Part shown: piece by piece, positions 698-36,288 of the stretch | Position numbering within the stretch: the first letter of the stretch is position 1 | Layout of the letters: each line of letters begins with the position of its first letter | IMG/VR virus record: IMGVR_UViG_2534681658_000022 | Source: a virus | Lineage: Duplodnaviria; Heunggongvirae; Uroviricota; Caudoviricetes | DNA: 38,034 nt | Reading direction: 5' to 3' (one strand) | Program-made: the position numbers and the translations under genes | Notes under the pieces: model-generated | Told to the model about the DNA's origin: nothing | Databases searched by the model: none | What the model saw: only the letters and a program-made list of their open reading frames with translations

Positions 698-1060
698 GGG
701 GCTGATTCTGGATTCGACGGGATTTGCGAAACCCAAGGTGCATGCCGAGGGGCGGTTGGCCTCGTAAAAAGCCGCAAAAAATAGTCGCAAACGACGAAAA
801 CTACGCTTTAGCAGCTTAATAACCTGCTTAGAGCCCTCTCTCCCTAGCCTCCGCTCTTAGGACGGGGATCAAGAGAGGTCAAACCCAAAAGAGATCGCGT
901 GGAAGCCCTGCCTGGGGTTGAAGCGTTAAAACTTAATCAGGCTAGTTTGTTAGTGGCGTGTCCGTCCGCAGCTGGCAAGCGAATGTAAAGACTGACTAAG
1001 CATGTAGTACCGAGGATGTAGGAATTTCGGACGCGGGTTCAACTCCCGCCAGCTCCACCA
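698..1060 (+). ncRNA. ssrA: tmRNA (SsrA, transfer-messenger RNA)
   Basis: 363 nt starting GGGGCTGATTCTGGATTCGACGGG and ending GGTTCAACTCCCGCCAGCTCCACCA (tRNA-like 3' end with CCA). Internal tag frame at 781-813, GCAAACGACGAAAACTACGCTTTAGCAGCTTAA, encodes ANDENYALAA-stop. Confidence 0.93.
1016..1060. repeat. attL core: 45-bp direct repeat (3' end of ssrA), identical copy at 36244-36288
   Basis: ATGTAGGAATTTCGGACGCGGGTTCAACTCCCGCCAGCTCCACCA occurs twice in the window and brackets the phage gene set. Confidence 0.85.
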
Positions 1061-1070
1061 AATAAATCAA

Positions 1071-1103
1071 GGGGTTACGTGAAAGCGTAGCCCCTTTTTC
1101 TTT
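1071..1103 (+). terminator. Rho-independent terminator after ssrA
   Basis: GGGGTTACG / CGTAGCCCC stem (one mismatch) with loop TGAAAG, followed by TTTTTCTTT. Confidence 0.55.
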
Positions 1104-1183
1104 GGTAGTGGCGGCAAAATGGCGACAAACTTTTGCGTCTATCTTGCCTGTCGCCATCTTGAAATCATGCAAAGAGGTTTCAC

Positions 1184-1666
1184 ATGGAAGAACTTCACTT
1201 TGTTTACATCAATGCAAATGGTCGTATCGGTGTTCACTCTATACAGGGCATCAGTTATAGCGAAAATCATATACAGGGCATTTGTAAGAACACCGATCGA
1301 ATAAAAACCTTCCGAAAAGACCGCATTCTTAAACAGTACGATTCACCAGAACAAGCCATTCAGGAATGCGCGTCATTCCTCCCCGAAAACTACTCACATC
1401 TCACTAAGCAGTCTGGTCCGAAAAAAAATACATTCGATGTGTGTTTCACCGGATTTAAGAAAGCAGATAAAGAAAGATTGGTTGATAAGGCGAATGAACA
1501 AGGATTAACGGTAAGAACCTCTGTAACCCAAAGCCTTCAGATGCTCTGTTGCGGTTACAATGCAGGCCCATCAAAAGTATCGGCAGCCAGGATGAAAGGC
1601 ACAATCATCATAGATGAGCCTGGCTTTATACATTTTCTTGAAACGGGTGAGATCCCAGATGAATAA
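1184..1666 (+). CDS. Hypothetical cargo protein with WYL-like N-terminal segment and BRCT-like C-terminal domain
   Basis: 160-aa ORF with AGAGG 7 nt upstream of the ATG. N-terminus has a QGICKNTDRIKTFRKDRI segment resembling the conserved WYL-domain core. C-terminus (FDVCFTGF...KERLVDKANEQGLTV...AGPSKVSAARMKGTIIIDE) resembles the BRCT domain of NAD-dependent DNA ligase. Domain calls are by eye. Confidence 0.6.
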   Translation: MEELHFVYINANGRIGVHSIQGISYSENHIQGICKNTDRIKTFRKDRILKQYDSPEQAIQECASFLPENYSHLTKQSGPKKNTFDVCFTGFKKADKERLVDKANEQGLTVRTSVTQSLQMLCCGYNAGPSKVSAARMKGTIIIDEPGFIHFLETGEIPDE

Positions 1667-1692
1667 AAACCTGCCGTAGCAGGTTCTCTTTC

Positions 1693-1911
1693 TCAAAAAT
1701 TCATATGCCCCTGACCACCTGGCAATGGATGTGGAGGAGCAGTAGCAATCAGTGCGGGTGTCACAATAAACCGGACCACTGTTTCATGGGTAACAAAAGT
1801 GCTCCCGCAGTTAATATTTTGGCACTGGCAGTAACGCTCTTTGGTGCTTTCAGTTACTTGAAAACTGCTCCTTGTGTGTGCCGCATGACCACACTTTGGA
1901 CAATTCATCAT
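1693..1911 (-). CDS. ogr: Late-gene transcriptional activator, Ogr/Delta zinc-finger family
   Basis: 72-aa product MMNCPKCGHAAHTRSSFQVTESTKERYCQCQNINCGSTF... with the C-x2-C...C-x4-C Ogr zinc finger. Start set at the internal ATG; the tracked ORF extends to 1956. Confidence 0.85.
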   Translation of the reverse strand: MMNCPKCGHAAHTRSSFQVTESTKERYCQCQNINCGSTFVTHETVVRFIVTPALIATAPPHPLPGGQGHMNF

Positions 1912-1979
1912 ATCCAGATCCCTACCTTTGCTATCAGAATCATTGTAATGATACACAAAATACCAATATTGAGAACCTT

Positions 1980-3080
1980 TTATTCCATTTCAAGATCATC
2001 AATCTTCACTTCGAGTTCAATACTGGTTGTAAAACCGTTATCCGGGCTGACGGTATGTGTCAGAGTCGTAATGGTCCATTCCGCATCATCTATCGGCTGT
2101 TTAAAACCACTGACTTTCACTGGCATTTCCGTGTAGAGATCTGCCCGACCTTCCGCCAGTTGTAGCGAGAATGACGCAACGCCGCGTTGCAGGCGTTCCC
2201 ACTGCATTTTCGCTGCCCGTTCAGCGTTGCTCCGGTTGGCATAAGTGCGATTAAGTACCAGCACGTTTTCATCCGTACCCACCAGGTAATCGCCCTGCTT
2301 CGCTTCCGGCTCTTTCTTCTGATTCTTAGTCCTGCGCTTACGCTTCACCGTTGTGCTTTCTTTCTTCGCGGGTTCGCGGGTATGCAACCAACTGGCAATT
2401 ACGCCCGTATAGGCTCCGCGATCTGCCAGGGTAAAGCGGTGACTGTCGCCGTCCTTACGTGTGATAGTGATCACCGGTAGTGGTTTACCGCTGGCACTTT
2501 TACCCTGTCCCTGCCGGATGAATAACAGATTGCCATTTTTCACCGACGCAATAGCACCGTACTGGCGCGCCAGCCGCATCAAAAAACTGCCGTCACTCTC
2601 ATTAGTCTGGTCTATATGCTCCACGGGTTTATCCGACAAGTCTTTAGCCAGTGCCATCTTCAGTTTGTGCCGCGCGGCTATTTCCTTCACCACTTCCCCG
2701 ACCGTGGTCTTGTGCCACGACTTTTCACGGCGGGTATTCAGCGTTTCCCGAAAATCAGCACTTCGCGCCCGGATAGTCAGGCGGTCCGGTGCGCCAGTGT
2801 GTTCAATCTCGTCCACCGTGAATGCCCCTTTCGGGAAAAGCGGCTGCCCCTTCCAACCCAGCGCCAGCGTAATGACCGCACCACGGCGCGGCAGCACGAT
2901 TTTTCCGTCAGCGTCGTCCAGCTCCAGATCAAGCTGGTCCGCTTCAAAGCCCCGGTTATCCGTCAGCGTAAGCCCCATCAGGCGGTTGTCCAGCACAGTA
3001 GTGATATCCCTGCCCTCAATACTGATGCTGAATGCGGGAGTTTTGTTGCCCTTATTAAGCAGTTCAGAGCTGAAATTCAC
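1980..3080 (-). CDS. D: Tail protein D (late control gene D family)
   Basis: 366-aa ORF at the P2 gpD position, adjacent to ogr and downstream of U; sequence character matches the gpD family. Confidence 0.88.
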   Translation of the reverse strand: MNFSSELLNKGNKTPAFSISIEGRDITTVLDNRLMGLTLTDNRGFEADQLDLELDDADGKIVLPRRGAVITLALGWKGQPLFPKGAFTVDEIEHTGAPDRLTIRARSADFRETLNTRREKSWHKTTVGEVVKEIAARHKLKMALAKDLSDKPVEHIDQTNESDGSFLMRLARQYGAIASVKNGNLLFIRQGQGKSASGKPLPVITITRKDGDSHRFTLADRGAYTGVIASWLHTREPAKKESTTVKRKRRTKNQKKEPEAKQGDYLVGTDENVLVLNRTYANRSNAERAAKMQWERLQRGVASFSLQLAEGRADLYTEMPVKVSGFKQPIDDAEWTITTLTHTVSPDNGFTTSIELEVKIDDLEME

Positions 3081-3562
3081 GACAGCAGCCCTCCCACCGT
3101 TTTACTGATATCGCTTAAAGCAGATGTTGCCGTTTCCTGCAGATTATTCAGTTGCGCACTGAGATCACCGAACATATCGGACAGGGATTCATCCACTCGT
3201 TTGAGCGACAGGGGGAACTCAATCCGGCGCGGCATACCGTCGCGGAAAAACTCCGTTTTAGTCTGATTCAGTCCCTCAATCACATACATGCCGTAAATCG
3301 TGCCGCTGCCTTCAATCAGGGGCCATGCTTTCCCCTGTTCTGCCATCTGCTCCAGTGCCAGCAACGACAGCCTGCCGCCTGTTATCTCCGGCATAAGAAC
3401 GCCAGAAAGCGTCAGCATGTCGTTATCCGGTCCCAGAAACTGCGTTGACGGGCGTCGGTTAACCCGGCTGTTTGCCGCATGTCGCCAGCTGCGTTGATAC
3501 TGCAGTTCCTGATACGGAACGGTGCGCAGCATAAACACGTACAATCCCAGCACCATCATCAT
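3077..3562 (-). CDS. U: Tail protein U
   Basis: 161-aa ORF between the tape measure gene and D, overlapping both by 4 nt; P2 gene order. Confidence 0.82.
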   Translation of the reverse strand: MMMVLGLYVFMLRTVPYQELQYQRSWRHAANSRVNRRPSTQFLGPDNDMLTLSGVLMPEITGGRLSLLALEQMAEQGKAWPLIEGSGTIYGMYVIEGLNQTKTEFFRDGMPRRIEFPLSLKRVDESLSDMFGDLSAQLNNLQETATSALSDISKTVGGLLS

Positions 3563-6500
3563 GCGTCGTATCCCCCCTGATCGCTGTAGTTACTCCTGGC
3601 TTTTGCCTTCAGCCTGCGTTCACGTTCATCAAGCTGGCGTGCCACCTCCCGCGCAATATCCTGCGCACTTTGTCCTGGCTGCGTCTGAATGATGATCTGC
3701 GTCGGTGCCTCAATCCGTTGAACGAGCGGCACAGTGGCTGCGCGACTCACAATTGCTTCTCCACCTTTCGCGGGAAGTGCCAAAGGGTGCAACGGTGGAA
3801 GCTCTGCTGGCGCGGCAGCAACGCCCATCATTCCGGCAACAACGGCAGCCAGTGCAGCTGTATTTCTCCGGCTGGTCACATTTGCCGGGCCGTTAACAAT
3901 TTCCGGCCCGTTTTCACCGACGATGCCAAACTGCCCGCGCGGGATATACCCGCCGCTGTCATACAACCCCGCAAAGCCATATCCCCATGACGGAAAACCA
4001 CCCGATGTCATCATCACTTTACCGTCTGCATTCACCGTCGCAGGTTGCTGACGCGTCACGCTTTCCGGCAGTTTTGCCTTTGCGGCTTCTTTACTGACAA
4101 TGCCGAGTTTTTCCAGCAACCAGGATACGCCGGATTTGAGGGAGTCCAGCGGATGCATAACCATATTCAGCCCTTCCGCCAGCGCCTCCCCGAATCGTCG
4201 CCCCATTTCCGCTGCGCTCTGCAGTTCGGCAGAAGTCGACTTAACGGGTGTCAGCAGATCAGTAAACCAGCCCCACAACGCCTGCACTTTATCGCCAATC
4301 CACTGGAACACAGGCTTAAGTGGTTCGAACGCGGCACTGACGGGACCTGCCGCTGCTTTGAATCCCTCCACCACACCACCGAGAAACGCGGTGATGGGTT
4401 GCCAGTATTTCCAGACAACCAGCGCCACACCCGCCAGTGCAGTAACCACAAGACCTATCGGACTGAGCAGAGCACCTAACAGACCAGACACGGCATACAG
4501 GGCAACGCGCAGCATCGCCAGTGGACCAGATGCCAGTACTCGCAGCACCGTGCCTGCGGCGGCCAGTCCACCGCGCAGTACCGCCAGAGGATTCATAAAC
4601 ATCACAGCAACAGCACGTAAACCGGATAATCCAGACCGCAAAAGTGCAACCGGCGCACCTGCTACAGTTTTCAGGACATTTCCCGTCAGTGATGCCGTGC
4701 GGCGCAAAGACGACAACGGCGCAGTAAGTAAACCTGCGGCGTTGCCCGATGAAGCAAGCCCGCGTCGCAGCAGTGCCAGTGGTGCGCCAGCCAGCCAGGA
4801 CAACGCGCTGCTGGTTCGAGTTACTGCTGCCGTAACGGAAGATAACGTTTTGATACCCAACACAGAGAATCCCAGACGGATCACTGCCAGCGGCCCCAGC
4901 ACTGCAGCCAGCGCCACCGCTAAGGTGCCGAGGCCGACGGTAACCGCAGCCACAACAGCCGATGCTTTCATCAGTGTGCCTGTCAGTTCCGGGTTAGCTT
5001 CCACCCAGCGACGCAACGCCCCCGTGACGCTTTTCACCGTGTACAGAATATCCATCAGCGGCTGGCGCAGCGTTTCGCCCAGGCTGCTGAAGGTGTTCTG
5101 CGCTCCGGTTTTGGCCAGCAACCACTGCGCAGAAAGTGAATCCTTGTTAATGTCGGATTCTTTCTGCATGGAGCCGAGCGCATCATTGCCCGCTGTCAGT
5201 TTTAACTGACGCTGCAGTTCCGGCAGGTTGTTTGCCAGTTTCGCCGCGTCATCGCCAAACTCTTTACCAAACAACATAGTCATGGCAGACAGGCGCTTGT
5301 CCTGCGGCAGCGCGTTTACCTTCTCCAGCACGCGCTGGATGGTTCCCATCGCATCCTTCGTCATCTGCTTTTCAATCACTTCAGGATTGAGTTTCAGCAG
5401 ATTCATCCCTTCAAAGAAACTCTTGCTTTGCATGGTGGCAATGGACAATTCACGCACCATCGCGTTTGCTGCACTGGCTGCAACCTCTGGCGCAGCGCCC
5501 AGTGTCAGGAAGGTGGAACCCAGCGCCGCCGCTTTACGATAATCCAGACGGTCAGCCACACCGCCCAGACGTTGCATCACATCAATGATGTCTGCCCCTT
5601 TCGACATGGCGTTATCATCCAGATAGTTCAGCGCATCACCGAGCTGTTCAATATTGCGGGTGGGGATTTTGTAGAGCTGGGCGATTTTCCCCAGACTTTC
5701 TGACAGTTCATCCGCTGGCAGCTCAAAGGCTGTTGCCGCCTTTGCTGCCGTACTGGCGAAGGCCAGCAGGTCACGTTTCTGATCTTCCCAGCTGTCGTCA
5801 GGGTTTGCGACGTTCATGCGCGCACCACCTTCAACCAGTGCAGCGAAGTCCACCGCACCGTTTTCCATCGGCAACTGTTCGCTGGCAGCCTTGATGGCAT
5901 CCTGCATTTCATAAAAACGTGCAGTGCGGTTGCCATTATCGTCACGCAGACCATTGACCTGCTTTGCCACACCTTTCATGGCATCTTCCATGCTGGTATA
6001 GCTTTTTACTGCCGCCATCACTGGCGCACCCATTGCCAGCCCTGCAGCCGTGGTGGTGGCTCCGGCACCTGCAATACGATCACGCACCTCCAGCGAACGG
6101 GCATAACTGGCACGCGCTGCATTCATCCTGCGCTGAGCTTCCCCCAGTCGCTTCAGCCGCGCCTCCTGTTTCGAAAGTTCCTGGTTATAACGTGATGTTT
6201 CACGGGCTAAACGGGCAGTTGCTCCCGCATCGTCTTTCGCAGAAATTCCCGCCCGGTACAGTTCAGCACGCACAAGCGCCGTCTGCTGCTGCAGCTTTTT
6301 CTTGCGTTCTTCCAGGCGCTGAACAGCCAGCCGTTGACGGCCCAGAGCAACAACCTGACGTTGCGAAGGCGGCCCCATCGCTCCCAGTTCCTGACTGAGC
6401 AAATTTGCACGCTGGCGGGCATAGTTCAGACTGTCGCCTAATTTCTGATTTTCTGCCTGCAGCTTTCGGAAGCTGTCCAGACTGCTCCCGGCCTGATCAA

Positions 6501-6636
6501 GCTGCTTTATTGCATCGCGGGATTTTTTGACAGCAGCAGCCAGTTCTCTTGAACTGGCCTGCGCAGATCGAAATGGGCGGGGGAGCTTGTCAACCGCATT
6601 AAGAATGACCTGCAGACGCAGGTTGTTATCACTCAT
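3559..6636 (-). CDS. T: Tail tape measure protein
   Basis: 1025-aa ORF with coiled-coil N-terminal region, a long Ala/Gly/Leu-rich hydrophobic repeat region and a C-terminal domain; follows E/E'. Confidence 0.92.
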   Translation of the reverse strand: MSDNNLRLQVILNAVDKLPRPFRSAQASSRELAAAVKKSRDAIKQLDQAGSSLDSFRKLQAENQKLGDSLNYARQRANLLSQELGAMGPPSQRQVVALGRQRLAVQRLEERKKKLQQQTALVRAELYRAGISAKDDAGATARLARETSRYNQELSKQEARLKRLGEAQRRMNAARASYARSLEVRDRIAGAGATTTAAGLAMGAPVMAAVKSYTSMEDAMKGVAKQVNGLRDDNGNRTARFYEMQDAIKAASEQLPMENGAVDFAALVEGGARMNVANPDDSWEDQKRDLLAFASTAAKAATAFELPADELSESLGKIAQLYKIPTRNIEQLGDALNYLDDNAMSKGADIIDVMQRLGGVADRLDYRKAAALGSTFLTLGAAPEVAASAANAMVRELSIATMQSKSFFEGMNLLKLNPEVIEKQMTKDAMGTIQRVLEKVNALPQDKRLSAMTMLFGKEFGDDAAKLANNLPELQRQLKLTAGNDALGSMQKESDINKDSLSAQWLLAKTGAQNTFSSLGETLRQPLMDILYTVKSVTGALRRWVEANPELTGTLMKASAVVAAVTVGLGTLAVALAAVLGPLAVIRLGFSVLGIKTLSSVTAAVTRTSSALSWLAGAPLALLRRGLASSGNAAGLLTAPLSSLRRTASLTGNVLKTVAGAPVALLRSGLSGLRAVAVMFMNPLAVLRGGLAAAGTVLRVLASGPLAMLRVALYAVSGLLGALLSPIGLVVTALAGVALVVWKYWQPITAFLGGVVEGFKAAAGPVSAAFEPLKPVFQWIGDKVQALWGWFTDLLTPVKSTSAELQSAAEMGRRFGEALAEGLNMVMHPLDSLKSGVSWLLEKLGIVSKEAAKAKLPESVTRQQPATVNADGKVMMTSGGFPSWGYGFAGLYDSGGYIPRGQFGIVGENGPEIVNGPANVTSRRNTAALAAVVAGMMGVAAAPAELPPLHPLALPAKGGEAIVSRAATVPLVQRIEAPTQIIIQTQPGQSAQDIAREVARQLDERERRLKAKARSNYSDQGGYDA

Positions 6637-7065
6637 CGTTGGCCCCGCTTCTCTGAATCGCTTTATACCGCCATTCCAGCACTTCGGTCAGCGGCATAAC
6701 GTCAGTAACGGATGGCGGCCAGGGAAAAATGGTGGCGATATCTGCCACCAGATCGTCAACCGTCAGGCTGTCGGTAAACCGGCAAGCACCGACTTCTTCA
6801 ACAAAAAAGTGACAACCTCAACCGACATGGCAGTGAGATCTGCCGGGTCCATCTCTGCAATTTCCTGTGCAGTCAGTGCCGGACTGGAGATGCGGGGGAT
6901 CACGGTCATCATCGCGTTTACATCCATATCCATAATGGCCTGCAGGCGTGTACCGCGCAGCGCACCGGACTGCGGTTTACGCAGCACAATTTCGGTGATT
7001 TCTGTTTTACCGCGCTTGATGGGGGTATCCAGTTGAATGGTCTTTTCAGTCTGCTTATCACTCAT
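6629..7065 (-). CDS. Tail assembly chaperone E+E' (predicted -1 frameshift product)
   Basis: Slippery heptamer T_TTT_TTG on the minus strand (plus coordinates 6808-6802) lies in the E frame. My hand translation of the -1 frame continues about 58 codons to a TGA at 6629-6631, overlapping the T start codon. Confidence 0.55.
6763..7065 (-). CDS. E: Tail assembly chaperone E
   Basis: 100-aa ORF immediately upstream of the tape measure gene and ending ...VVTFLLKKSVLAGLPTA across the slippery site. Confidence 0.8.
   Translation of the reverse strand: MSDKQTEKTIQLDTPIKRGKTEITEIVLRKPQSGALRGTRLQAIMDMDVNAMMTVIPRISSPALTAQEIAEMDPADLTAMSVEVVTFLLKKSVLAGLPTA
6802..6808 (-). promoter_or_regulatory. Programmed -1 ribosomal frameshift slippery site (TTTTTTG)
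   Basis: Heptamer in X_XXY_YYZ phasing relative to the E frame, in the position expected for the E/E' (lambda G/GT-like) chaperone frameshift. Confidence 0.55.
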
Positions 7066-7119
7066 TTTTCTGTCCTGTAAATTGGGTTCTGGCGCGGCAT
7101 TCCGCGCCGTTCAGATACA

Positions 7120-7635
7120 TCAGAGGCCGAGGGCGTTGCGGTGCGCTTCCATCAGGTCCACACCGTCCACAATTTCCACCATGTTGATAAGGTCCACTTC
7201 ATAGAGCACCTCACCATTGATAGTCAGCTTCGCGTAACTGTTGGTACTGGTCACTTTGGTGGTGTTGCTTTCGCCCGTCTTCCACTCGCCGGAGTCCACT
7301 TCTTTGTGACGTCCACGCACCACAAGCTCCACGGCCTGTACTTCCCCGGTATCATCACGCTGGATAGAGCCGGTAAAGCGCAACTGGATGCCATCCACCG
7401 TGGCTTTGCCCATCTGTTTAAACAGCAGCAGTTCAGTACCACCAATGGAAAATTCTGTGTCCAGAGCACTGTCATCAAGCCCCAGATCCACATCCACTGC
7501 ACCCGGCATTCCGCCGCCGCGATACTTCTCATATTTGCGGGTGAATTTCGGCAGCGTCAGCGACTCTACGATCCCCTGCCAGTTGTTCCCGTCGTTAAAC
7601 AGGTTCAGATGTTTTAATTTGCGTGGTAAAGCCAT
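7120..7635 (-). CDS. FII: Tail tube protein FII
   Basis: 171-aa ORF directly downstream of the sheath gene; conserved sheath-tube pairing in contractile tails. Confidence 0.88.
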   Translation of the reverse strand: MALPRKLKHLNLFNDGNNWQGIVESLTLPKFTRKYEKYRGGGMPGAVDVDLGLDDSALDTEFSIGGTELLLFKQMGKATVDGIQLRFTGSIQRDDTGEVQAVELVVRGRHKEVDSGEWKTGESNTTKVTSTNSYAKLTINGEVLYEVDLINMVEIVDGVDLMEAHRNALGL

Positions 7636-7644
7636 GTTGTCCCC

Positions 7645-8817
7645 TTACGCGCTGACCTGGCTGGCAAAATTCACCAGGTACTGATCGGTGATGCGCTGGC
7701 GCAGCATCAGATTTTCAAGTGGCGGCACTGGCGTGTAGTCATAGTCGATGGTGAGTTTTCCGGCTTTCAGCGTGTCTTTGTCGTTCACCGACTCATCCAG
7801 CCAGCAATCACCACCAATGAGATAGCCCTGACTGACCAGGCTGCGCATTTTGGCGCGGATACCTTCGATAATGTCGCGGGCCAGCGACGGGTTAAGCGGT
7901 TTATCCACTGCCCACATGTGCGCTTCTGCCATTGTGTCCGTCAGCACCTGCGCCGTGCGGGTGTAGTTTTCGAAGGCAAAGAGCGGGTCATCACTCAGGC
8001 AGCGGGAACCCCAGAAGCGGAAACCGTCTTTACGCACAAGCGTGGTGACGTCGTTCTGGTTCAGCAGACCTGCATCGGTTGCCGGGTCCTGCAGATCCCA
8101 GAACACATCTGCAGAAATTCCGGTGACACCGTTCACGCCCACGTTGGACAGGCTTTTGTGCCACCCGGTCTGCTCATCAATTTTGGCACGCAGACCAAGC
8201 GCACGGGCGGTGGCATATGCCGTTGCTTCGGCATTCAGCACCGTGTCCCAGCCAGTAAAGTCGGGCCAGATCAGCATTCCTTCGCGCTGGCTGAAGTTTT
8301 CACGGTAAGTGATCGCCTCCTGTACCGTCTTGCAGCCATACGCTGACAGGTAAGCAAACCCACGCAGGCTTTGCGCCACGCTCAGCAACTCAGTCGCAAC
8401 GGCTTTGTTATCGTGACCTGGCACGCCGAGAATGCGCGGTTTAACGCCGAGCTGTGACTGGGCAGATAGCAGGGCTTTCATGCCTGTTTTTTTACCTTCA
8501 GCAGTCACAGCGCCGATGATATTGGTCGTGGTTTCGTCTTCCGTTTCACCCTGCGGCACACGCACAACAACGGTCACGGGTTTTGCCTGGTCAGCGATGG
8601 CATCCAGCGAACGGGCCAGAGTACCGGACTCACCCGCTTTACCGCTGGCAGTCAGCACATCAGTGATCAGCACGGGTTTATTAAGAGGAAACATTTTTGC
8701 ATCGGCATCATCGCCCGTGCAGACCATACCCACGATGGCGGTGCTCACCGTGGTAATGGATCGGGGGCCTTCGTTGACTTCAACAACGCGCACCCCGTGG
8801 TGGTAATCCTGAGCCAT
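7645..8817 (-). CDS. FI: Tail sheath protein FI
   Basis: 390-aa ORF with tail-sheath character, upstream of the tube gene. Confidence 0.9.
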
Positions 8818-8949
8818 AAGGCAGTCTCTCCGGTAGTAGAGGGGGTCTGCCTATGTTCTGGTTGATACGAGCAGGATGCACGTTATGTGGTTTGTATGAA
8901 AAATGGCACAACGGCGGATACAGGAATCCCCGCAGACGCGGGGATGTAT

Positions 8950-9384
8950 TCAGACTTCTGGTGATAAAGGCCAGACTATATCCGGGGCATCACTTACATT
9001 AATATTTTCAAGTAACTCAAGATAATCCAGCATCGCATTAAATCTGGTTGTCTCCATTTCGTTCAGCCTGCCAAGCTGTAATTTTGATGGCCATTGTTTT
9101 TCATTAATCAGGTTGTTAGCCTCATTAATGCGCATCTGTTTCATCATTTCTGCCTGTTCCACCTGTTCCTCATGGGTCAATGGTGGACGTTCTTCCCATG
9201 ATGGCTGGTTATCAGTGCCTGCAACCATTTTGTACCCTTCCCGATAACCAAGATAAAACTCCTGATAGACTGCATCACTTACCTCAATACAGTCATCCGG
9301 CCACGCATCGAGAGCATCGTAATAATCAGATTTCAGTTCACTGTTATAAAATGCATTTCTTGATGGACTGTAAAAATAACTCAT
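8950..9384 (-). CDS. G: Tail fiber assembly protein (chaperone)
   Basis: C-terminus ...NVSDAPDIVWPLSPEV matches the conserved end of Tfa/gpG-type tail fiber assembly proteins. Start codon overlaps the fiber stop (TGATG); the tracked ORF has an upstream extension to 9417. Confidence 0.75.
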   Translation of the reverse strand: MSYFYSPSRNAFYNSELKSDYYDALDAWPDDCIEVSDAVYQEFYLGYREGYKMVAGTDNQPSWEERPPLTHEEQVEQAEMMKQMRINEANNLINEKQWPSKLQLGRLNEMETTRFNAMLDYLELLENINVSDAPDIVWPLSPEV

Positions 9385-15860: not shown

Positions 15861-15861
15861 T

Positions 15862-27965: not shown

Positions 27966-27981
27966 CTGTTTATATTTACAG
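27966..27981. promoter_or_regulatory. LexA (SOS) box
   Basis: CTGTTTATATTTACAG fits the CTGT-N8-ACAG consensus and overlaps a TATA-rich -10-like region for the minus-strand small ORF/dinI-like operon. Confidence 0.6.
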
Positions 27982-28075
27982 TATATAATAATCTTACTGA
28001 TGTAAAACGTTTTTTTACGTTCATCAGCCTGATATGCCTGGTATTATTAAGAGCACGAATTGTTAATCCGCGTAA

Positions 28076-30490
28076 TTAATACAGGTTCCGCCACTTATCA
28101 TCTTCCTGTAAACGCTGATTCCGATAGAAGATACGCAGGCCAGCCCCTGACGGAATACTGCCTCCGCGAAGGAGTAAATCGACCTCTTTCTCGCTGCCAT
28201 CAAATCCTCTGGACTTCAGTTCATAGACGAGCTGCTGTCGCTGATGGTCTGTAATTCGCTGTTTGTAGTCTTTGCGCCGTTTCGGTTTCACCTGGCGTAA
28301 CCTTGCAGCCAGTTCCCGACGCTCTTTTTTGCTCATACTGTGCAGATAATCGTGCAACTCCTTGTCATCCTGGCGGGTAATGTCAGTTCTGGTGTCCCCA
28401 TCAGCTGATTTATCTTTCTCCTGTTGGTTCAAATTTTCAGCAAGGGGACAGTTATTGCCACGAGTCCAAGGGGCGCAAGCGCCCTTGTCGGCTGCCGCCT
28501 CCTGAACGTCAACGGCCTTACGAACCATTTTCCACTTCACTGCATGAGTGCAGATCTTGCCCTCTGCAATGGGTGACCAGATGCCATAAATACGAATACC
28601 GTGATCGCCATAGGCGGTCGGCTCTTCGTTGATTTCATAAGCAGTTCTGATGAGGTGATATTTGCGGGGAACCAGTACGCCGCCCTGCTTCATGATGTAG
28701 GTGGCAAAACAACCAGCATCAGCAGCAGCCAGGATTGCATCAAGGCGCGGGTTATCCAGTACCGGCGCACCTGCTTTTTTGTCCCCCTGCTGCCTTGCCG
28801 CCTGACCAGCCAGCAATCGCAGTTCACGGTAAGCCTGACGCCCCGGAATGCCAAAGAAGCGGAATTGCTGAACACGATGCAGAGACGCCCAAGCATTAAC
28901 GTATTCAGCGTTATCACGCAGGGATTTACCCGTTTCCTTGCTGATCTCGCCAGCCAGACCACGCCCGTCAATGTTCTTACTGATGTATTTCGCGATGTAG
29001 CTTGTTGGCGTACCTTTGCGCGGGTTTATCAGCTCGGACTTAAAGCGTGGTCCCGTGTTATTACCCAGCTCCTCGCGGTCTTCACGAATGGCAAACTTAC
29101 GCAACAAAGCAGTAATGGCGCGGCGATCTTTTTTGCGCATAAAACACAACAGGTGCCAGTGAACTGTACCGTCGTGATGCGGCTCAGCCACCCGCACGCC
29201 ATACCAGCGCAACCCGGCTTTGTGCATCGCCTTACGAAATGCAGCAAACATACCGACCAGATAATCACTGCTTTGTCTTACCGTCGCATTTGTCCAGGTT
29301 GGGTTGGGCCTGCCGTTATTTAGCGTGGAATGGAAACGTGACGGACAGGTGATGGTGTAGAAAACGGCGCAGTCACCGCGCATTTCCGCGATAAGCTCCA
29401 GACCTTTAACACAGGCCATCATCTCATTGCGGCGATGCGCAGGGTTGCTGCTGCTGGCGTTTACCACATCCTCCATGTCCAGCGTGTCGCCGTCTTCGTT
29501 CACCAGTTCATGAGAACGGAAAAACTCCAGCGACTTACGGCGCTGCTCACGTTTATGCATCACGGCTTCATAGCTGACATAAGGAGATGCTTTTTTGCTA
29601 ACCAGGCAGACAGCGCGCAACTGCTCTTCCCGCCATTCGCAACGCATCTTCCATAATTTCCGATACCACCAGTCGGCGCACAACATACGCGCCAGCGAAC
29701 CCGGAATGAGTTCATAGGGCACGGGTTTACGGCGGTTTCTTTTCCGACGGAGTTGCTCAAACGCAGGCGGGATAACATCCAGACGCAGGGTTTCCGCTGC
29801 CACCTTTTCCCACGTCTTGCGGATTTCTTCTGGCTTAACGTCATCGGTGGCATACAAATCACCACAAGCGGCATCAAGGCACATGCTCATATGCGCAGCA
29901 ACAAGGGTAGACAGACGCTTCACCTGATCCTGACTCATTTCAGGCAGGATCAGCAGGCCGTCCAGCCCTTCATGGCTTGCCATAAAGCGAAAAGAAGTGG
30001 ATAGCTGACAGTCGCGTACATGCTCCAGTCGTTCCAGACATGGCTTAATCGTCTCACGCAAATAGCGGGAATAAGCCTTTGGCCTGCCCAGGCTGCTGAA
30101 GTATTCAATACGTTGCATCAGCGGCTTGCTGATATGGGAAGGCTGGGCATTGACGTCCGCCAGAATGACCATATCTGGATTAAAACGCTGCTGCTCATGC
30201 GCCAGCTTTGCCCGGCTAATGAGTTTATCCTGCTCCATTTCGCGTTGGACAGGATCACGGGATTCATTAAAGAAATAACGCTCCCAGACCTGATCACTCA
30301 GTGCCTCGCGGCGCAGTTGTTCCAGCTCGTTATCGACAGCGTACAGAGTGATCAGGTTTGAAAGCGCAGAAACCGGCGCAACTTCCGCCGGGTCCAGATA
30401 AGGGTTAATGGCCTTTTTCGGGCTGTTCCATGAGAATGCTGCGGCGACCTCGTTAAAGCCGCTGCAGTTGTTCATATCAGCATGGCTCAT
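28076..30490 (-). CDS. A: Replication initiation endonuclease, P2 gpA family
   Basis: 804-aa ORF at the end of the early operon, the position and size class of the P2/186 A protein. Confidence 0.88.
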
Positions 30491-31233
30491 GCACGCACTC
30501 CGTACACGGCAGAACTATCCACTCCACGCGAAGGATCAAATCCCACCCAGCAGCGCGGCCCGGAAACAGCGATGATTTCTGTTGCAGATTTACTCTCACC
30601 AGCTGCTACGCCGATGCTGCGTTTTGCCTTGATGTAGTGGTGAGTAAAATTGCGATACAGCGAACGGATCAGGGATGTGTCACTGTTAGAAACAATGACC
30701 GGATGTCCTTCTGATGACCGATGTTCAAGAACGGATGCCAGGTGATACTGGTCATCTTCAGTGAAACCATCAGTGTGATAGCCGGAAAACGTACCGTCAT
30801 ACGGCGGATCGCAATACACCACATCCCCCACCTGCAGCATCGCCAGCGTTTCATCAAAGCTCGCGCAGATAAACGTTGCCCGCTTGGCTTTCTCTGCAAA
30901 TGCGCGAATTTCTTTTTCAGGGAAATACGGATTTTTATAATTACCGTAGGGAATATTGAAATGCCCGCTCTTGTTATAGCGACATAAACCACGGTAACCG
31001 TGACGATTGAGATACAGGAAATATACCGCTTTCATGAAATCAGTAATTTCAGTTGAGTAATTAAACTCCTGCCTTATGTTGTAATAAGCCACCTCCCTGT
31101 TTGCGATCTCAAATAAAACTCTGGCGCGAGATATAAACGATTCACAATCAGCGGCAACCTTTTTATAGAGGTTGATTAAATCAGGATTAATATCCGCAAC
31201 CAGATAACTGGGATAATCCGTCTCCATCATCAC
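30487..31233 (-). CDS. dam: DNA adenine methyltransferase (Dam-like), C-terminal frame of a frameshifted gene
   Basis: Contains the DPPY catalytic motif and [16 protein letters not shown]. The Dam-like N-terminus (MSTILKWAGNKTAIMSELKK...) is encoded from ATG 31345 in another frame and stops at about 31256 after a run of 7 A (plus-strand T7 at 31285-31291). Confidence 0.7.
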
Positions 31234-31341
31234 AGCACAGGAACCCGCGAAAGGTTCAACCAGTCGCGGGCCAGCAGGAAGATGTTTTTTTCAGTTCTGA
31301 CATTATGGCAGTTTTATTTCCCGCCCATTTCAGGATGGTGC

Positions 31342-31569
31342 TCATACAGCACCTCCGTTGTAATGTTTGCCTTTCAGCTCTGCGATTTCCTGACAGGTAA
31401 TGCAAAGCTGCACACCCGGAATGGCACGGCGGCGTGCTGGCGGAATTGGCGCTTCACACTCAATGCAAAGCACGCGGGACACGCCCGGCGTTTTGGCACG
31501 GGCAGCATGGATATGACGCTGGCGTTCTTCTTCAACGCGCTGCTGTACGAGATCCATTGCATCAGCCAT
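31342..31569 (-). CDS. TraR/DksA-family C4 zinc-finger protein
   Basis: 75 aa with CIECEAPIP...CITCQ; its stop overlaps the dam start (ATGA). Confidence 0.75.
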   Translation of the reverse strand: MADAMDLVQQRVEEERQRHIHAARAKTPGVSRVLCIECEAPIPPARRRAIPGVQLCITCQEIAELKGKHYNGGAV

Positions 31570-31808
31570 TAGTGGATCTCCTGCGCTTCGTTCTGGATTG
31601 CTTCAGCAGTCACACGAAGCAGTTCTGCCGCTTCGACGTGGTTTAGCTGGCGGGATGTGATATGACACGCCAGGCTATCAAGGCGAGCTGCCATTGCTTC
31701 AGCCCTTGCCCGGCGTTCTTCCAGACGAGCCTCTGTCAGTAAAATATTAAGCCCTGCGTCATCCGGTCCGGTTTTGGTCGTGAGGGTTTCAATATTACGC
31801 ATAATCAA
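31569..31808 (-). CDS. Hypothetical early protein
   Basis: 79-aa ORF in the early operon, contiguous with the zinc-finger gene. Confidence 0.55.
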   Translation of the reverse strand: MIMRNIETLTTKTGPDDAGLNILLTEARLEERRARAEAMAARLDSLACHITSRQLNHVEAAELLRVTAEAIQNEAQEIH

Positions 31809-31869
31809 TTCTCCTGAATTTAGATAAAGGGATACCCGGCGGGTTTACGCCATTAATTTCATTAGTTGG

Positions 31870-32211
31870 TTAATTCGGCATGGTTAGCCGTCTGGGAAAT
31901 AAGCTCACCACTGCACGAAAATGATTCATTGCTTTAATCAACTCCCGCTTTTCGTCAGTGGTCAGCTCATTAATGCTGATGCTATGACGTTCAGCTGGAA
32001 TTTTTGCCATAAAGAATATAGCAGCCAGTGCCCGTTTATTTTGTTCGTTATTGATATCCCGTGGATCACGCATATCTTTAATAAACCGCTCAAGCTCTGA
32101 CTCAATATTCAGGCCAAATACTTTCGCCCTTAACTCCGCAATGTGATTAAGTCCATTCAGGCGTTCACCGGGGCTTAATGGAACAGTCGCCGCAGCGCTT
32201 TCAATAGCCAT
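31870..32211 (-). CDS. Hypothetical early protein
   Basis: 113-aa ORF in the early operon. Confidence 0.55.
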   Translation of the reverse strand: MAIESAAATVPLSPGERLNGLNHIAELRAKVFGLNIESELERFIKDMRDPRDINNEQNKRALAAIFFMAKIPAERHSISINELTTDEKRELIKAMNHFRAVVSLFPRRLTMPN

Positions 32212-32293
32212 TTATGCATCCCCACAACACATCTACTAAAAAATTTTTGATATGATCCATTACCAACATATTGATAGCTAGAAGGAATCATCA

Positions 32294-32542
32294 ATGTTGA
32301 ACCCGGTTGAAAGAGAGCGTATAGAGCAACTTGAAAACGAGATCTCCAGTCTTCGCGATGAGGTTGCTGTTCAACGAATTCTTGTTTCAGGTCTGATCCA
32401 CTCCTTATTTCGAACTGACTCAGCAAATCAATCAGCATTTTTTGAGCTCCTCCGCGAAGAATTAAACAAACTTCCTTTAGGTTCGGTTAAACAACAAGAA
32501 TTCACTCATCTGATACAGACACTGATAGATCGTTACCGATAA
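32294..32542 (+). CDS. Hypothetical coiled-coil protein (opposite strand within the early region)
   Basis: 82-aa ORF with AAGGAA 7 nt upstream of the ATG and an AT-rich promoter-like region at about 32225-32290. Preferred over the low-complexity minus-strand ORF 32175-32438. Confidence 0.45.
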   Translation: MLNPVERERIEQLENEISSLRDEVAVQRILVSGLIHSLFRTDSANQSAFFELLREELNKLPLGSVKQQEFTHLIQTLIDRYR

Positions 32543-32757
32543 ATATTTCGCCGATAACGTTCAAGAGGTGATGTCTTTATACGCATCACTTCTTGTACTT
32601 TTTCACCACGTATAAAGGTTCCATCCTTTAGCGTGAAAAAGTAGCTACCATCGCCCGACAACGACGGATAGCAACAGAGCAAATCATCTTCAGGTACTGA
32701 ATAATTCTCCCCTCTGTAACGAAAGTGATAAACCACTTCATTTTCTGCCGCATACAT
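32533..32757 (-). CDS. Hypothetical early protein
   Basis: 74-aa ORF with GGAG about 9 nt upstream; overlaps the upstream ORF in a different frame. Confidence 0.5.
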   Translation of the reverse strand: MYAAENEVVYHFRYRGENYSVPEDDLLCCYPSLSGDGSYFFTLKDGTFIRGEKVQEVMRIKTSPLERYRRNIYR

Positions 32758-32924
32758 TTGGACTTTCTCCGTTTCCTCGTGATCAATTCAGACAGCAATT
32801 CATCTTGTGAACGGCACGGATGCCAGCGTTTACCATCCTCCCCCATGATCCAGCCGTGACCGTAGTGCATTGCCGGGCTTTGTTTTACCAGCAGCGATGC
32901 AAATGATGGTTCTTTCGTCAGCAT
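32628..32924 (-). CDS. Hypothetical early protein (downstream of cII; 3' portion possibly out of frame)
   Basis: Start set at the ATG (MLTKEPSF...) preceded by GAGGTG. The frame runs 130 nt into the next gene and its C-terminal 40 residues look non-protein-like. Confidence 0.35.
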   Translation of the reverse strand: MLTKEPSFASLLVKQSPAMHYGHGWIMGEDGKRWHPCRSQDELLSELITRKRRKSKCMRQKMKWFITFVTEGRIIQYLKMICSVAIRRCRAMVATFSR

Positions 32925-32931: not shown

Positions 32932-33441
32932 TCACAGCAAACCGAATGAAGCACCGAGGCCAGTCACGGTATCAACTGCACTCGCCATCGCAGGATTAGC
33001 CTGTAAACGGGCCTGCAATGAAACAGCCGCCAGCGCCATCAGTCGTGTTACAGAGTTAATGCTGCTGATAGCATCACGACGACCGGCACAGGTTTTTACA
33101 TCGCCAGATACCGCACCTGCAGCAACACGCCCGATCTCTGCGGTTGCACTCATGACGTAATGTGGCAGTTTCTCTTTTGCCACCTCATTAATCGGTACAC
33201 ATGGCAGACAATGAATCTGTGCCAGAAAACCATCTACCAGCGTTGAATCTTCAGTCAGATCGGTAAGCAGCCAGATTTCTGGTGCGGTTAATAAATGAGG
33301 CTGAGCTGGGTTCAGCTTGTTCCGCAGAATCTGCACATTCATGCCTGCACGTTCTGCCAGTTGCACCAGGTTGTGACGCAGTGCAAAAGCCCTACAGGCT
33401 TCATCGAAATGCGGATGTTTGGAAATCTTGTAATCAAACAT
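32932..33441 (-). CDS. cII: Transcriptional activator CII (186-type)
   Basis: 169 aa; sequence ([16 protein letters not shown]...[24 protein letters not shown]...[14 protein letters not shown]) closely resembles coliphage 186 CII as I recall it (not searched). Confidence 0.85.
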
Positions 33442-33473
33442 GGTGCCCCCTTAGAAAGTTCCCATAATTGAAC

Positions 33474-33716
33474 TTACTTACCAACAATGACGCGGAAGTT
33501 GGAATGACCGAGGGATTCACGGACCTGATCAGTTTTGTACATCAGATAACGAAGGCTTACGCGGCCTTTATTTTTTTCTTTCTTGACCATGTACTTAGCA
33601 AGTTGACCATGGTGAATTTTTTGGTAAACAGAGCCACGGGAAATGCCCTCCCACTCTGCGAACTCTGCAGGCGTAGCCATCTCTTTTGGTACACGAATTG
33701 AAATATCAGTACTCAT
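33474..33716 (-). CDS. Apl/Cox-like excisionase and transcriptional regulator
   Basis: 80-aa ORF transcribed divergently from cI, first gene of the lytic operon; HTH-like segment ATPAEFAEWEGISRGSVYQKIHHGQL. Confidence 0.65.
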   Translation of the reverse strand: MSTDISIRVPKEMATPAEFAEWEGISRGSVYQKIHHGQLAKYMVKKEKNKGRVSLRYLMYKTDQVRESLGHSNFRVIVGK

Positions 33717-33818: not shown

Positions 33819-33837
33819 TGTCAAATGGAGATTACCA

Positions 33838-34470
33838 ATGTTAAACATCAGAATGGGTTCCGATACGGGAGGTAAGGCAGCTATTGAGAGGCTGCTTGAG
33901 GCTTATGGATTCACAACTAAGCAGGCATTAAGCGAGCACCTGAATGTCTCAAAAAGTACTATGGCAAACAGAGTGTTACGTGACAGTTTTCCTGCTGACT
34001 GGATAATTCAGTGTGCACTAGAAACCGGTGTTTCGTTACTTTGGTTAGCCACAGGACAGGGAAGCATGAAAGAAGGATACGAGCCTGAGAAAAGATCTCA
34101 TAACGAGAACAAACAAGCAATTAAACCGTTATCCAAACTCATAACTCCATCTATTCCTAAAGGAACCTTGGAAAATGGACAACTCAGTATTGATGAAGAG
34201 ATTTTCCTAGACCACAGCATATTACCTGCAGATTATGAAGAATCGATGTTCTTAGAAACCCCTACTGATTGTTATCTCATCGATAAATCAGTTAAACAAG
34301 TCAGCAATGGATTCTGGCTTATCAATATTGATGGAATGATTATTATTGCAAAAATCATGCGGATTCCCGGCAATAAGATTGTAGTAAATCAAGATGAAGC
34401 ATCTTTCGAGTGCTCTGCTGATGATGTGGAAGTTATTGGGCGTGCAGTCAAAGTAATAAAGAGTATCTAA
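33838..34470 (+). CDS. cI: CI-type immunity repressor
   Basis: 210 aa with N-terminal HTH region and C-terminal domain; GGAG RBS; divergent from apl and immediately upstream of int, as for 186 cI. Confidence 0.8.
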   Translation: MLNIRMGSDTGGKAAIERLLEAYGFTTKQALSEHLNVSKSTMANRVLRDSFPADWIIQCALETGVSLLWLATGQGSMKEGYEPEKRSHNENKQAIKPLSKLITPSIPKGTLENGQLSIDEEIFLDHSILPADYEESMFLETPTDCYLIDKSVKQVSNGFWLINIDGMIIIAKIMRIPGNKIVVNQDEASFECSADDVEVIGRAVKVIKSI

Positions 34471-34472
34471 AC

Positions 34473-35489
34473 ATGACTGTCAGAAAACAGCCAAACGGTA
34501 AATGGTTGTGCGAGTGCTATCCCAATGGACGCAATGGCAAGCGCGTGCGTAAGCAATTTGCTACGAAAGGCGAAGCCATTGCTTTTGAAAGCTTCACAAT
34601 GGAAGAAGTGAACAAAAAACCATGGCTGGGGGAAAAGGAAGATCGGCGACACCTATCAGAATTAATTGAGCAGTGGTATTCCCTGTATGGTCAAACACTC
34701 GCAGACCCCAAGCGCCTCATGGCGAAACTTAGAATTATCTGTAATGGTCTAGGCGATCCCATCGCTTCAGAACTGACAGCCGGTGACTTTACGAAATACC
34801 GCGAAGCACGGTTAAAAGGTGAAGTACGAAATGAAGATGGCACGTTTATGTCGCCCGTTAAGCCCCGCACGGTAAACCTTGAACAGCGCAATCTATCATC
34901 TGTTTTTGGTACACTGAAAAAGTTGGGCCACTGGTCAGCCTCCAACCCGCTTGCTGGGCTGCCAACATTTAAAATTGCTGAGAGTGAATTGGCGTTCCTG
35001 ACCCCGGAAGAAATTAAACGTCTGCTGGATGCCTGCGCCGATTCTCAAAGCTCCAGCCTGCTTTTGATTGCAAAAATATGCCTGGCCACCGGCGCACGCT
35101 GGAGCGAAGCCGAAAACCTGCAGAGTCATCAGGTATCAAAATACCGTATCACTTATACCAAGACCAAAGGCAAGAAAAACCGAACTGTGCCTATTTCTAA
35201 GGATTTATATGAAGAACTGCCTAAGAATAGGGGGAAGTTATTCACCCCATGCAGAAAAGCCTTTGAGCGTGCAGTAAAGCGGGCTGGTATCGATCTGCCA
35301 GAGGGTCAATGTACTCACGTTCTGCGTCATACATTCGCTAGCCATTTTATGATGAATGGTGGAAACATATTGGTTTTGCGGGATATCCTAGGACATTCAG
35401 ATATAAAAATGACCATGGTCTATGCACACTTCGCCCCAGACCATTTAGAAGATGCCGTAACTAAAAATCCTTTATTTAATTTGAGGTAA
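34473..35489 (+). CDS. int: Tyrosine integrase (P2/186 type)
   Basis: 338 aa with the conserved R...HxLRH...Y catalytic region (VLRHTFASH...MTMVYAH); follows cI. Confidence 0.92.
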   Translation: MTVRKQPNGKWLCECYPNGRNGKRVRKQFATKGEAIAFESFTMEEVNKKPWLGEKEDRRHLSELIEQWYSLYGQTLADPKRLMAKLRIICNGLGDPIASELTAGDFTKYREARLKGEVRNEDGTFMSPVKPRTVNLEQRNLSSVFGTLKKLGHWSASNPLAGLPTFKIAESELAFLTPEEIKRLLDACADSQSSSLLLIAKICLATGARWSEAENLQSHQVSKYRITYTKTKGKKNRTVPISKDLYEELPKNRGKLFTPCRKAFERAVKRAGIDLPEGQCTHVLRHTFASHFMMNGGNILVLRDILGHSDIKMTMVYAHFAPDHLEDAVTKNPLFNLR

Positions 35490-35499
35490 GTAGTAATTT

Positions 35500-36168
35500 A
35501 TGAATAGCGAACTAGAGTTACTTATAAAAATATTATTCCCTTCCCTATCTGCCATTATATCCTTATTAGGGCTTAAAACAGGGTGGACTTATAAAAAAGA
35601 CAAACTATTCACATCACGTAAAAACATTAGCGAATTTTCATATCAGATGTATAAAAGCAGTGAAGATCCGACCTTCAAAAAACTGGCGGAAGATTACGGC
35701 ATTGCTGCATTAACCAAAGATAACACATTGACAAAAAAACAAAGATTAATATTACTCAACACAACAAACCCCGTTAGCGATATAGATAATTATTCCAAAT
35801 GTCAAAGTCTAATTTCCATTACCACCCATAAAGAAATATTCGCATGGAATAAAAAAAGATATAAATACAGCATATATAGAAAATTAATAAAAATCATAAC
35901 AACTCTAATTTACTTCATGAGCAGTCTCATCGTAGCACTTCCTTTCAGTTATTCTGTTGTAGTAAGTGCTAAGATGATGGAGAAGATAAACCATCTAACT
36001 ACTTGGCAATACTTTGGTTTAAGCAGCTATTTTGTGGTATCGGGAGTAGCAATATGCTTTATCTGCCTAGATAAGCTCTCCAAGATTAAGATCGCCGAGA
36101 GATTAATCGTTTCGAATAGGCGTTTAGGCGACAAATGCAGTGGCGGCACTTTGGCGGCAGAAAGTTAA
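35500..36168 (+). CDS. Hypothetical membrane protein between int and attR (candidate lysogenic-conversion cargo)
   Basis: 222-aa very AT-rich ORF starting 11 nt after the int stop on the same strand. N-terminal TM helix, Lys-rich cytoplasmic region, then two C-terminal TM helices. Confidence 0.55.
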   Translation: MNSELELLIKILFPSLSAIISLLGLKTGWTYKKDKLFTSRKNISEFSYQMYKSSEDPTFKKLAEDYGIAALTKDNTLTKKQRLILLNTTNPVSDIDNYSKCQSLISITTHKEIFAWNKKRYKYSIYRKLIKIITTLIYFMSSLIVALPFSYSVVVSAKMMEKINHLTTWQYFGLSSYFVVSGVAICFICLDKLSKIKIAERLIVSNRRLGDKCSGGTLAAES

Positions 36169-36243
36169 AAACCCATAAAACGGACAGACACCGTATAAAT
36201 CTAACCAACTGAAAATCAAAGCAAATCATTGTTTTTACAGACA

Positions 36244-36288
36244 TTGAAATGCTATGTAGGAATTTCGGACGCGGGTTCAACTCCCGCC
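36244..36288. repeat. attR core: second copy of the 45-bp ssrA 3'-end repeat
   Basis: Identical to 1016-1060. Confidence 0.85.

Follow-up and report, generated by a model that had tools for sequence, protein, structure and literature searches.

The window analysed here, by which we mean the whole 38,034-nt stretch of DNA in IMG/VR virus record IMGVR_UViG_2534681658_000022, carries a complete tmRNA gene (ssrA) whose last 45 nt recur perfectly at the far end of a 35,238-bp unit of phage genes. We are highly confident that this unit is the prophage of a temperate myovirus of the P2 family (Peduoviridae), belonging to the Fels-2/SopE-phi lineage and with Escherichia phage Cartapus as its nearest relative. 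A first-pass annotation had likewise proposed a complete P2/186-family prophage, and every P2 late gene was found here in P2 order, together with a cos site, a switch and an intact integrase. Positions 1–37248 are 99.97% identical to a chromosome segment of the enterotoxigenic Escherichia coli (ETEC) isolate L5_E1779 (NZ_LR883006.1). The ends of the unit are marked by the following features:

698–1060, plus strand: complete ssrA (tmRNA) gene, called by ARAGORN and by Rfam (RF00023, 295.8 bits, model positions 1–374 of 374); its last 45 nt are attL
1016–1060, unstranded: attL core, 45 bp, a perfect direct repeat that coincides with nt 1–45 of the 47-bp attP annotated in Fels-2
1069–1096, plus strand: hairpin and T-run supplied by the phage, a 12-pair stem and then TTTCTTT, directly after the rebuilt ssrA 3' end
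36254–36298, unstranded: attR core of 45 bp, formed by the original 3' end of ssrA, now displaced, with native ssrA downstream sequence next to it, as in K-12

ARAGORN and Rfam agree that the tmRNA gene at 698–1060 is complete, with the tag peptide ANDENYALAA. A repeat search recovered the perfect direct repeat ATGTAGGAATTTCGGACGCGGGTTCAACTCCCGCCAGCTCCACCA at both att positions, bearing out the 45-bp repeats of the ssrA 3' end reported in the first-pass annotation; since the bases flanking both copies differ, the identity is exactly 45 bp, and the chance expectation for such a repeat in 38 kb is ~6e-19 (7e8 position pairs x 4^-45). The end coordinate given earlier, 36288, falls 10 nt short of the true attR end at 36298. 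Removal of the element (1061–36298) produced an in silico empty site of 1,603 nt, with which we searched 5,426 complete E. coli genomes. It was matched at 100% and in a single piece in many of them, including K-12 DH5alpha, and at least 80% of it was covered in 958. In DH5alpha an integrase gene lies directly after ssrA, and the recreated junction is the ssrA–intA junction of K-12. The predicted attP, formed when the left flank of attR is linked with the right flank of attL, is unbroken in phage Cartapus, with 91% identity over the core; the Cartapus record carries an annotation of a putative cos end. The 47-bp annotated attP of Fels-2 consists of the 45-bp core of the prophage plus AA. That SopE-phi and Fels-2 integrate into ssrA is well documented in published work (PMC3448106, which cites Pelludat 2003).

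The location in the ssrA 3' end that had been proposed earlier is therefore upheld by the empty site, by the contiguous attP of Cartapus and by the shared Fels-2 core. The tyrosine integrase recombined phage attP with chromosomal ssrA. Because attP brings its own version of the final 45 nt of ssrA, with the hairpin and its T-run behind it, the tmRNA gene is rebuilt intact at attL and its original 3' end is left at attR. Integration into ssrA with the tmRNA gene restored is shown at the level of sequence, and the hairpin at 1069–1096 is likely, from its position and form, to be a replacement terminator for ssrA. Sites resembling the 186-type Int arm site CGCCAYT occur twice just right of attL (1107 and 1118) and once left of attR (36139), a reading that is only suggestive because the window holds 20 CGCCAYT matches.

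On the ETEC segment, the Prokaryotic Genome Annotation Pipeline (PGAP) names ogr, D, U, T, E/E', FII, FI, G, H, I, J, W, V, S, R, lysC/B/A, K, Y, X, L, M, N, O, P, Q, A, dam, cII, an apl-like gene, cI and int. We mapped the coding sequences of this segment onto the window to judge its open reading frames (ORFs), and all of them were open and full length, with start and stop codons, except dam and fil. Every window protein was also compared by tblastn with P2, 186, Cartapus and RE2010. The late operons proved collinear with those of P2 and 186 at 35–69% identity, the matches to Cartapus were full length and mostly 95–100% identical, and the holin, lysozyme and G were replaced by analogues relative to P2/186. 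The full gene set in P2/186 order claimed in the first-pass annotation was thus recovered by its collinearity, and its statement that no structural gene is visibly disrupted agrees with our result that the essential genes are all free of disrupting stop codons and frameshifts. The late and replication features are:

1693–1911, minus strand: ogr/B late-gene activator with a zinc finger, named by PGAP; 67% identical to 186 B and 56% to P2 Ogr
1980–8817, minus strand: F operon, open ORFs for D (1980–3080), U (3077–3562), T, the tape measure (3559–6636), E' (6629–6748), E (6763–7065), FII, the tube (7120–7635), and FI, the sheath (7645–8817)
8893–8910, unstranded: predicted activator site TGT-N12-ACA upstream of FI (pF-like), from a pattern scan, at the position of the P2 pF activator site
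8950–13538, minus strand: V operon, with G, tail-fibre assembly (8950–9384), H, tail fibre (9384–11114), I (11111–11716), J (11709–12617), W (12604–12963) and V (12960–13538)
13586–13603, unstranded: predicted activator site TGT-N12-ACA upstream of V (pV-like), from the pattern scan
14089–19899, minus strand: O operon, with S, R, lysC, lysB, a lysA-like gene (15483–15860), K lysozyme, Y holin, X, L, M small terminase, N major capsid protein (17991–19049) and O scaffold (19066–19899)
19978–19995, unstranded: predicted activator site TGT-N12-ACA between the divergent O and P operons, from the pattern scan; P2 has one shared pO/pP site
20042–22836, plus strand: P large terminase (20042–21808) and Q portal (21808–22836), 100% and 95% identical to Cartapus and ~62% to P2
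24867–24885, minus strand: cos, 19-nt cohesive-end sequence GGCGTGGCGGGGATACGAG, aligning to the cos junctions of P2, 186 and Cartapus
28076–30490, minus strand: gpA replication endonuclease, 804 aa, 98% identical to Cartapus and RE2010 and 31–35% to the A proteins of P2/186

The F operon is collinear and full length against P2, 186 and Cartapus, and a slippery TTTTTTG at 6802–6808, in codon 86 of E and with the E' frame downstream, identifies E/E' as a -1 frameshift pair. Each of the three late intergenic regions contains one predicted TGT-N12-ACA site of the Ogr type. The cos sequence is of the P2/186 type (that of 186 is GGCGTGGCGGGGAAAGCAT), its flanks also aligning to P2, 186 and Cartapus, and homology of the 804-aa ORF assigns gpA to the rolling-circle endonucleases. 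By analogy, Ogr/B would switch on the late operons via the TGT-N12-ACA sites, gpA would start rolling-circle replication and terminase would cut at cos.

The C-terminus of H and G, a host-range module, are unlike those of all the reference phages compared, and no invertase is present. Within H we noted a 239-nt internal direct repeat (9895–10133 and 10375–10613, 70% identity, 480 nt apart), which indicates a duplicated fibre module. The additional gene at the lysA position (15483–15860, minus strand; DNZ54_00345 family, phrog_162) has the lysozyme gene on one side and lysB on the other; Cartapus and RE2010 lack it.

The regulatory region comprises:

32932–33716, minus strand: cII (32932–33441) and an apl/cox-like gene (33474–33716), 68% and 30% identical to 186 CII and Apl
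33838–35489, plus strand: cI repressor (33838–34470) and tyrosine integrase (34473–35489); CI is 32% and Int 55% identical to 186
27490–27983, minus strand: SOS module, with a LexA box (27964–27983), orf62 (27734–27922) and a DinI-like gene (27490–27723)

Int is 95% identical to that of RE2010 and Cartapus and has the HxxR and C-terminal Tyr motifs. cI diverges from apl–cII in the arrangement found in 186, and the early region is of the 186 type and not of the P2 type. The SOS module sits just downstream of gene A, the position occupied in 186 by p95, the LexA site and tum. Its 20-mer TACTGTAAATATAAACAGTG, 40 nt upstream of the 62-codon orf62, agrees at 17 of 20 positions with the LexA-box consensus, and includes the sole CTGT-N8-ACAG in the window (27966–27981), of which ~0.6 would be expected by chance across the window. 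The DinI-like gene starts 10 nt past orf62 and encodes a 77-aa protein (Pfam DinI, E 6e-22) that shares 41% identity with the last 77 residues of 186 Tum. The layout of orf62 and the DinI-like gene is kept in Cartapus, RE2010 and Fels-2, the DinI gene being annotated in Fels-2 as PsP3 TumB-like.

If the biology of 186 is a guide, a switch of CI versus Apl, plus CII, would maintain lysogeny. DNA damage would clear LexA from the box before the orf62 and DinI-like operon, the products of which would act as a Tum-type antirepressor against CI, and Apl and Int would then excise the prophage.

The remaining early genes, two of them damaged, are:

31342–32211, minus strand: accessory genes for a TraR/DksA-like protein (31342–31569), DUF2732 (31569–31802) and DUF5347 (31870–32211)
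30487–31345, minus strand: dam methylase, frameshifted by an extra base in the T7 run 31285–31291 (A7 on the coding strand)
32294–32542, plus strand: cargo gene orf82, phrog_26925, function unknown
32769–32924, minus strand: fil remnant of 52 Fil-like codons, a PGAP pseudogene, 80% identical to 186 Fil residues 1–50

Cartapus, RE2010 and Fels-2 all lack a segment of ~540 bp with orf82 (~32214–32754 by comparison with Cartapus). In the prophage this segment stands in place of the C-terminal codons of fil, so that the Fil-like N-terminus runs on into unrelated sequence.

While no evidence contradicted the identification as a prophage, several observations weigh against the reading that this copy is fully functional and SOS-inducible. 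Sequence comparison revealed no similarity of orf62 to the N-terminal half of 186 Tum, so its antirepressor role would follow from position only, and a consensus promoter scan called no sigma-70-type promoter at the LexA box, where by eye a TTTACA can be seen with a weak -10 element overlapping the box. Of the SOS-linked, Tum-like module proposed in the first-pass annotation, the LexA box, the position and the DinI-like half therefore stand and the N-terminal half does not; antirepressor activity may be inferred from position and half the protein. Moreover, seven missense changes occur in the window only: U T117P, T T19P, E' H9P, FI T18P, H T137P, N T300P and O Y119S, six of the seven being to proline. 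The ancestral residues at these sites are common to Cartapus, RE2010 and Fels-2, and four of the seven are invariant across P2 and 186 too. Among 926 E. coli genomes carrying the segment, no full-length match had the N allele. In dam, the indel lengthens an A6 run at codon 20 by one A; A6 was found in all 18 E. coli genomes inspected that have the segment, and the added A in none. Lastly, fil is truncated. Since tblastn found no dam homologue in P2 or 186, dam is unlikely to be required; fil of 186 affects host cell division, and both accessory genes are expected to be dispensable.

Whether this copy can make viable phage depends on whether the seven missense changes are real, and the inducibility suggested in the first-pass annotation turns on the same point. 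If they are, the prophage is probably defective, with six residues newly changed to proline in capsid, sheath, tape-measure and tail proteins: it would then be a recently inactivated, cryptic prophage in which point mutations in these proteins and in the scaffold stop virion assembly, with excision and cargo expression probably retained. This we regard as a minority possibility. In its favour are the unique missense changes, which hit conserved positions in genes essential to morphogenesis, the frameshift in dam, the failure to find the window alleles in other E. coli genomes and the uniform direction of the dominant substitutions. Ten substitutions and one indel separate the window from the ETEC reference, and nine of the ten substitutions are A:T->C:G, a spectrum resembling that of a mutT-type mutator. 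The same set has, however, features that mutation filtered by selection would hardly produce. Eight of the nine changes are T->G on the plus strand, and six turn GGGTG into GGGGG even though the two strands of 37 kb together offer only 66 GGGTG sites. Not one T->G change is synonymous, and the indel lies in a homopolymer. Such context specificity fits base-calling or polishing error, and because of it, and of the strand bias, the lack of synonymous T->G changes and the homopolymer indel, we think it likely that the window-specific differences are systematic sequencing or polishing errors. The 2 kb of host flank showed no differences from the ETEC reference but is too short to inform. The T->G set and the homopolymer indel bear on any call of this prophage as intact or defective. 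The window-specific positions are 3214, 6582, 6723, 8766, 10706, 17278, 18152, 19544 and 32841, and also 24930 and 31291.

A further alternative, that the locus is a phage-derived island or tailocin locus in which the repeats are relics of an old integration and no longer recombine, appears very improbable to us. Nothing specific speaks for it beyond the fact that many ssrA-linked islands are degraded, the neighbouring one of the CP4-57 type, with its intA cut by an insertion sequence (IS), being an example. Against this, the head, portal, terminase, cos, replication, lysis, switch and integrase determinants are all present and the genes open, the repeats are perfect, the catalytic motifs of the integrase are kept, and the overall similarity to a phage genome with an annotated cos end is ~71%.

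The segments that do not align to Cartapus coincide with AT-rich genes (30–42% GC versus 49.5% overall) in the known variable sites of P2. The cargo genes are:

22874–24776, minus strand: Septu, between cos and Q, comprising the PtuA ATPase (23538–24776) and the PtuB HNH nuclease (22874–23545); 32% GC
25229–25882, plus strand: orf217, a stand-alone HEPN-like gene, RiboL-PSP-HEPN by the name one source gives it; 30% GC
26135–27001, minus strand: orf288, in which a conserved, Cys-rich alpha/beta domain at the N-terminus precedes a C-terminal HEPN (Abi_C-like) domain; 35% GC
13627–14064, plus strand: orf145, a multi-pass membrane protein in the S/V (P2 orf30) site; 34.7% GC
35500–36168, plus strand: orf222, a multi-pass membrane protein with hydrophobic windows, between int and attR; 34.5% GC; phrog_21256, function unknown
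1184–1666, plus strand: orf160, a small BRCT-domain protein like the LigA C-terminus, between attL and ogr; 41.6% GC

PADLOC models matched PtuA and PtuB over their full length (E 7e-122 and 2e-82, respectively), and the two genes overlap by 8 nt. Pfam assigned AAA_21/AAA_15 and HNH domains to the proteins, and relatives of PtuA are in the PDB. As expected for a PtuA/PtuB pair, the Walker A and B motifs (GDNGSGKT and IVLIDE) and the CxxC/HNH motifs are intact. By sequence, this is a complete Septu anti-phage system with a predicted defence function, and the prophage probably makes this strain of ETEC lineage more resistant to phages.

The convergent genes orf217 and orf288 lie between the SOS module and cos, which is the position of old/tin in P2. 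The product of orf217 has an invariant R-N-x3-H motif, and a 63%-identical homologue occurs alone in the G/FI (Z/fun) site of a P2-like prophage of Morganella (locus 5001–5651). As this is a different P2 variable site, orf217 would appear to move between sites as a single-gene cassette. For orf288, there is a weak Pfam match to Abi_C, and the AlphaFold2 model (pLDDT, the predicted local distance difference test score, of 86) was compared by Foldseek with the PDB, the top seven hits all being HEPN proteins with probabilities of ~1 but E-values of only 0.016–0.2. Its family is small, comprising ~40 homologue clusters across Gammaproteobacteria, all named 'hypothetical' and found elsewhere in integrase-bearing islands. 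Sequence searches of the PDB with orf217, orf288 and orf222 gave nothing significant, and neither orf217 nor orf288 was a confident match to any PADLOC model. We considered whether the two form a two-gene system and rejected this, given that homologues of orf288 in Pectobacterium and Shewanella islands have unrelated neighbours and that the orf217 homologue stands alone elsewhere. Tentatively, one or the other could be a new single-gene abortive-infection RNase used against competing phages alongside Septu.

At the remaining sites, orf145 has hydrophobic windows across residues 36–141 and found no match in the four profile libraries searched; the S/V site is filled by different genes in P2, Cartapus and RE2010. 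The int–attR site, occupied here by orf222, has an unrelated 401-aa gene in Cartapus and RE2010. Both orf145 and orf222 are candidate superinfection-exclusion or conversion genes. In contrast to these, orf160 is 98% identical in Cartapus; it matched phrog_2561 (E 1e-76) and, weakly, Pfam BRCT, and belongs to a family of widespread 160-aa proteins whose homologues are named 'BRCT domain-containing protein'.

The gpA–gpQ interval of P2-like phages is described as a defence hotspot with variable, AT-rich anti-phage cargo (Rousset et al. 2022, PMC9122126). The locus table of that study lists one combination of WP_001404037, WP_001404038, DinI, WP_001154434, an AAA_21/AAA_15 ATPase and WP_024169310, and the accessions in this table agree with the annotation here except at the position of orf288. 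As far as that table goes, the two HEPN-like genes are listed only as 'hypothetical'. The content of the A–Q hotspot is thus already catalogued, and mildly novel leads are limited to the two HEPN-like singletons and the membrane-protein cargo genes. Neither Septu, nor the other cargo, nor the tandem island of the CP4-57 type is mentioned in the first-pass annotation.

That island begins just beyond attR:

36463–38034, plus strand: flank outside the prophage, a CP4-57-type intA cut after ~262 codons, with an IS3-family element (IS1203/IS629-like) from ~37235

The reference intA integrase has 410 aa. Homology to the ETEC reference ends at 37248, and the IS3-family element contains an ALIL frameshift pseudoknot at 37582–37698. 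Since attR is followed by this IS-cut intA, the P2-like phage integrated in tandem, before an older ssrA island whose integrase is now inactivated.

Among the complete E. coli genomes, 165 of the 5,426 (~3%) share the ssrA–orf160–ogr–D junction, and the right-hand 15 kb, with all its cargo, is common to five genomes. For placement we took similarity as BLAST coverage x identity, which is a rough estimate and not a VIRIDIC value. The ICTV genus criterion is at least ~70% nucleotide similarity; by our rough BLAST-based estimate, the ~70.8% to Cartapus sits right at that threshold for Elveevirus, and the prophage falls below it for Felsduovirus, with ~59% to Fels-2 and ~62% to RE2010. At most, then, this would be a new species of a well-known kind, near-identical copies of which can already be found in public genomes, and its importance beyond annotation is small. 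It is a textbook case of a P2/186-family phage that uses the tmRNA gene as its attachment site and restores the gene on integration, and it illustrates the known pattern of P2-like prophages with anti-phage systems, here Septu, in fixed variable sites. The best-covering named phage, 'Escherichia phage 500465-1', is a prophage prediction that includes host smpB and recN, and was not used as a viable-phage reference.

Cartapus (Elveevirus cartapus, NC_070909) aligned with 74% of the prophage at 95.5% identity, giving the ~71% intergenomic similarity. The two have in common full-length core proteins at 95–100% identity, the attP region, the orf160 BRCT gene, Int, the CI/Apl/CII switch and the orf62 and DinI-like module. 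They differ at all variable sites, including the tail-fibre C-terminus and assembly protein, the prophage having no invertase. Cartapus has a 176-aa gene where the prophage has orf145, lacks the extra lysA-like gene, carries a DUF4145 protein instead of Septu between cos and Q and two other hypothetical genes in place of orf217 and orf288, is without the fil-truncating orf82 insertion, and has by int a 401-aa 'RES' protein instead of orf222.

The Salmonella phages Fels-2, SopE-phi and RE2010 (Felsduovirus) are the classical ssrA-integrating P2-like phages, and the prophage shares their integration site, with an attP core equal to the ssrA 3' end and a tmRNA gene that is complete after integration. 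It also resembles them in having ogr beside ssrA and int distal, in gene order and in the split module of an orf plus DinI ('TumB-like'). Intergenomic similarity to this group is nonetheless only 59–62%, the host of the prophage is E. coli, and cargo and tail fibre differ. With 186 (Eganvirus) and P2 (Peduovirus) the nucleotide-level similarity drops to ~15%, even though the late operons are collinear and cos, Ogr/B sites, the E/E' frameshift and gpA are all shared. The likeness to 186 extends to the CI/Apl/CII switch and to a putatively LexA-controlled operon with a DinI-like domain downstream of A, but Tum of 186 is one 146-aa protein whereas the prophage has two ORFs, the first unrelated to the Tum N-terminus. 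P2, by contrast, uses C/Cox, has no SOS module and carries old and tin where the prophage has orf288 and orf217. The three also differ in where they integrate: 186 in tRNA-Ile, P2 at a non-tRNA site and the prophage described here in ssrA.

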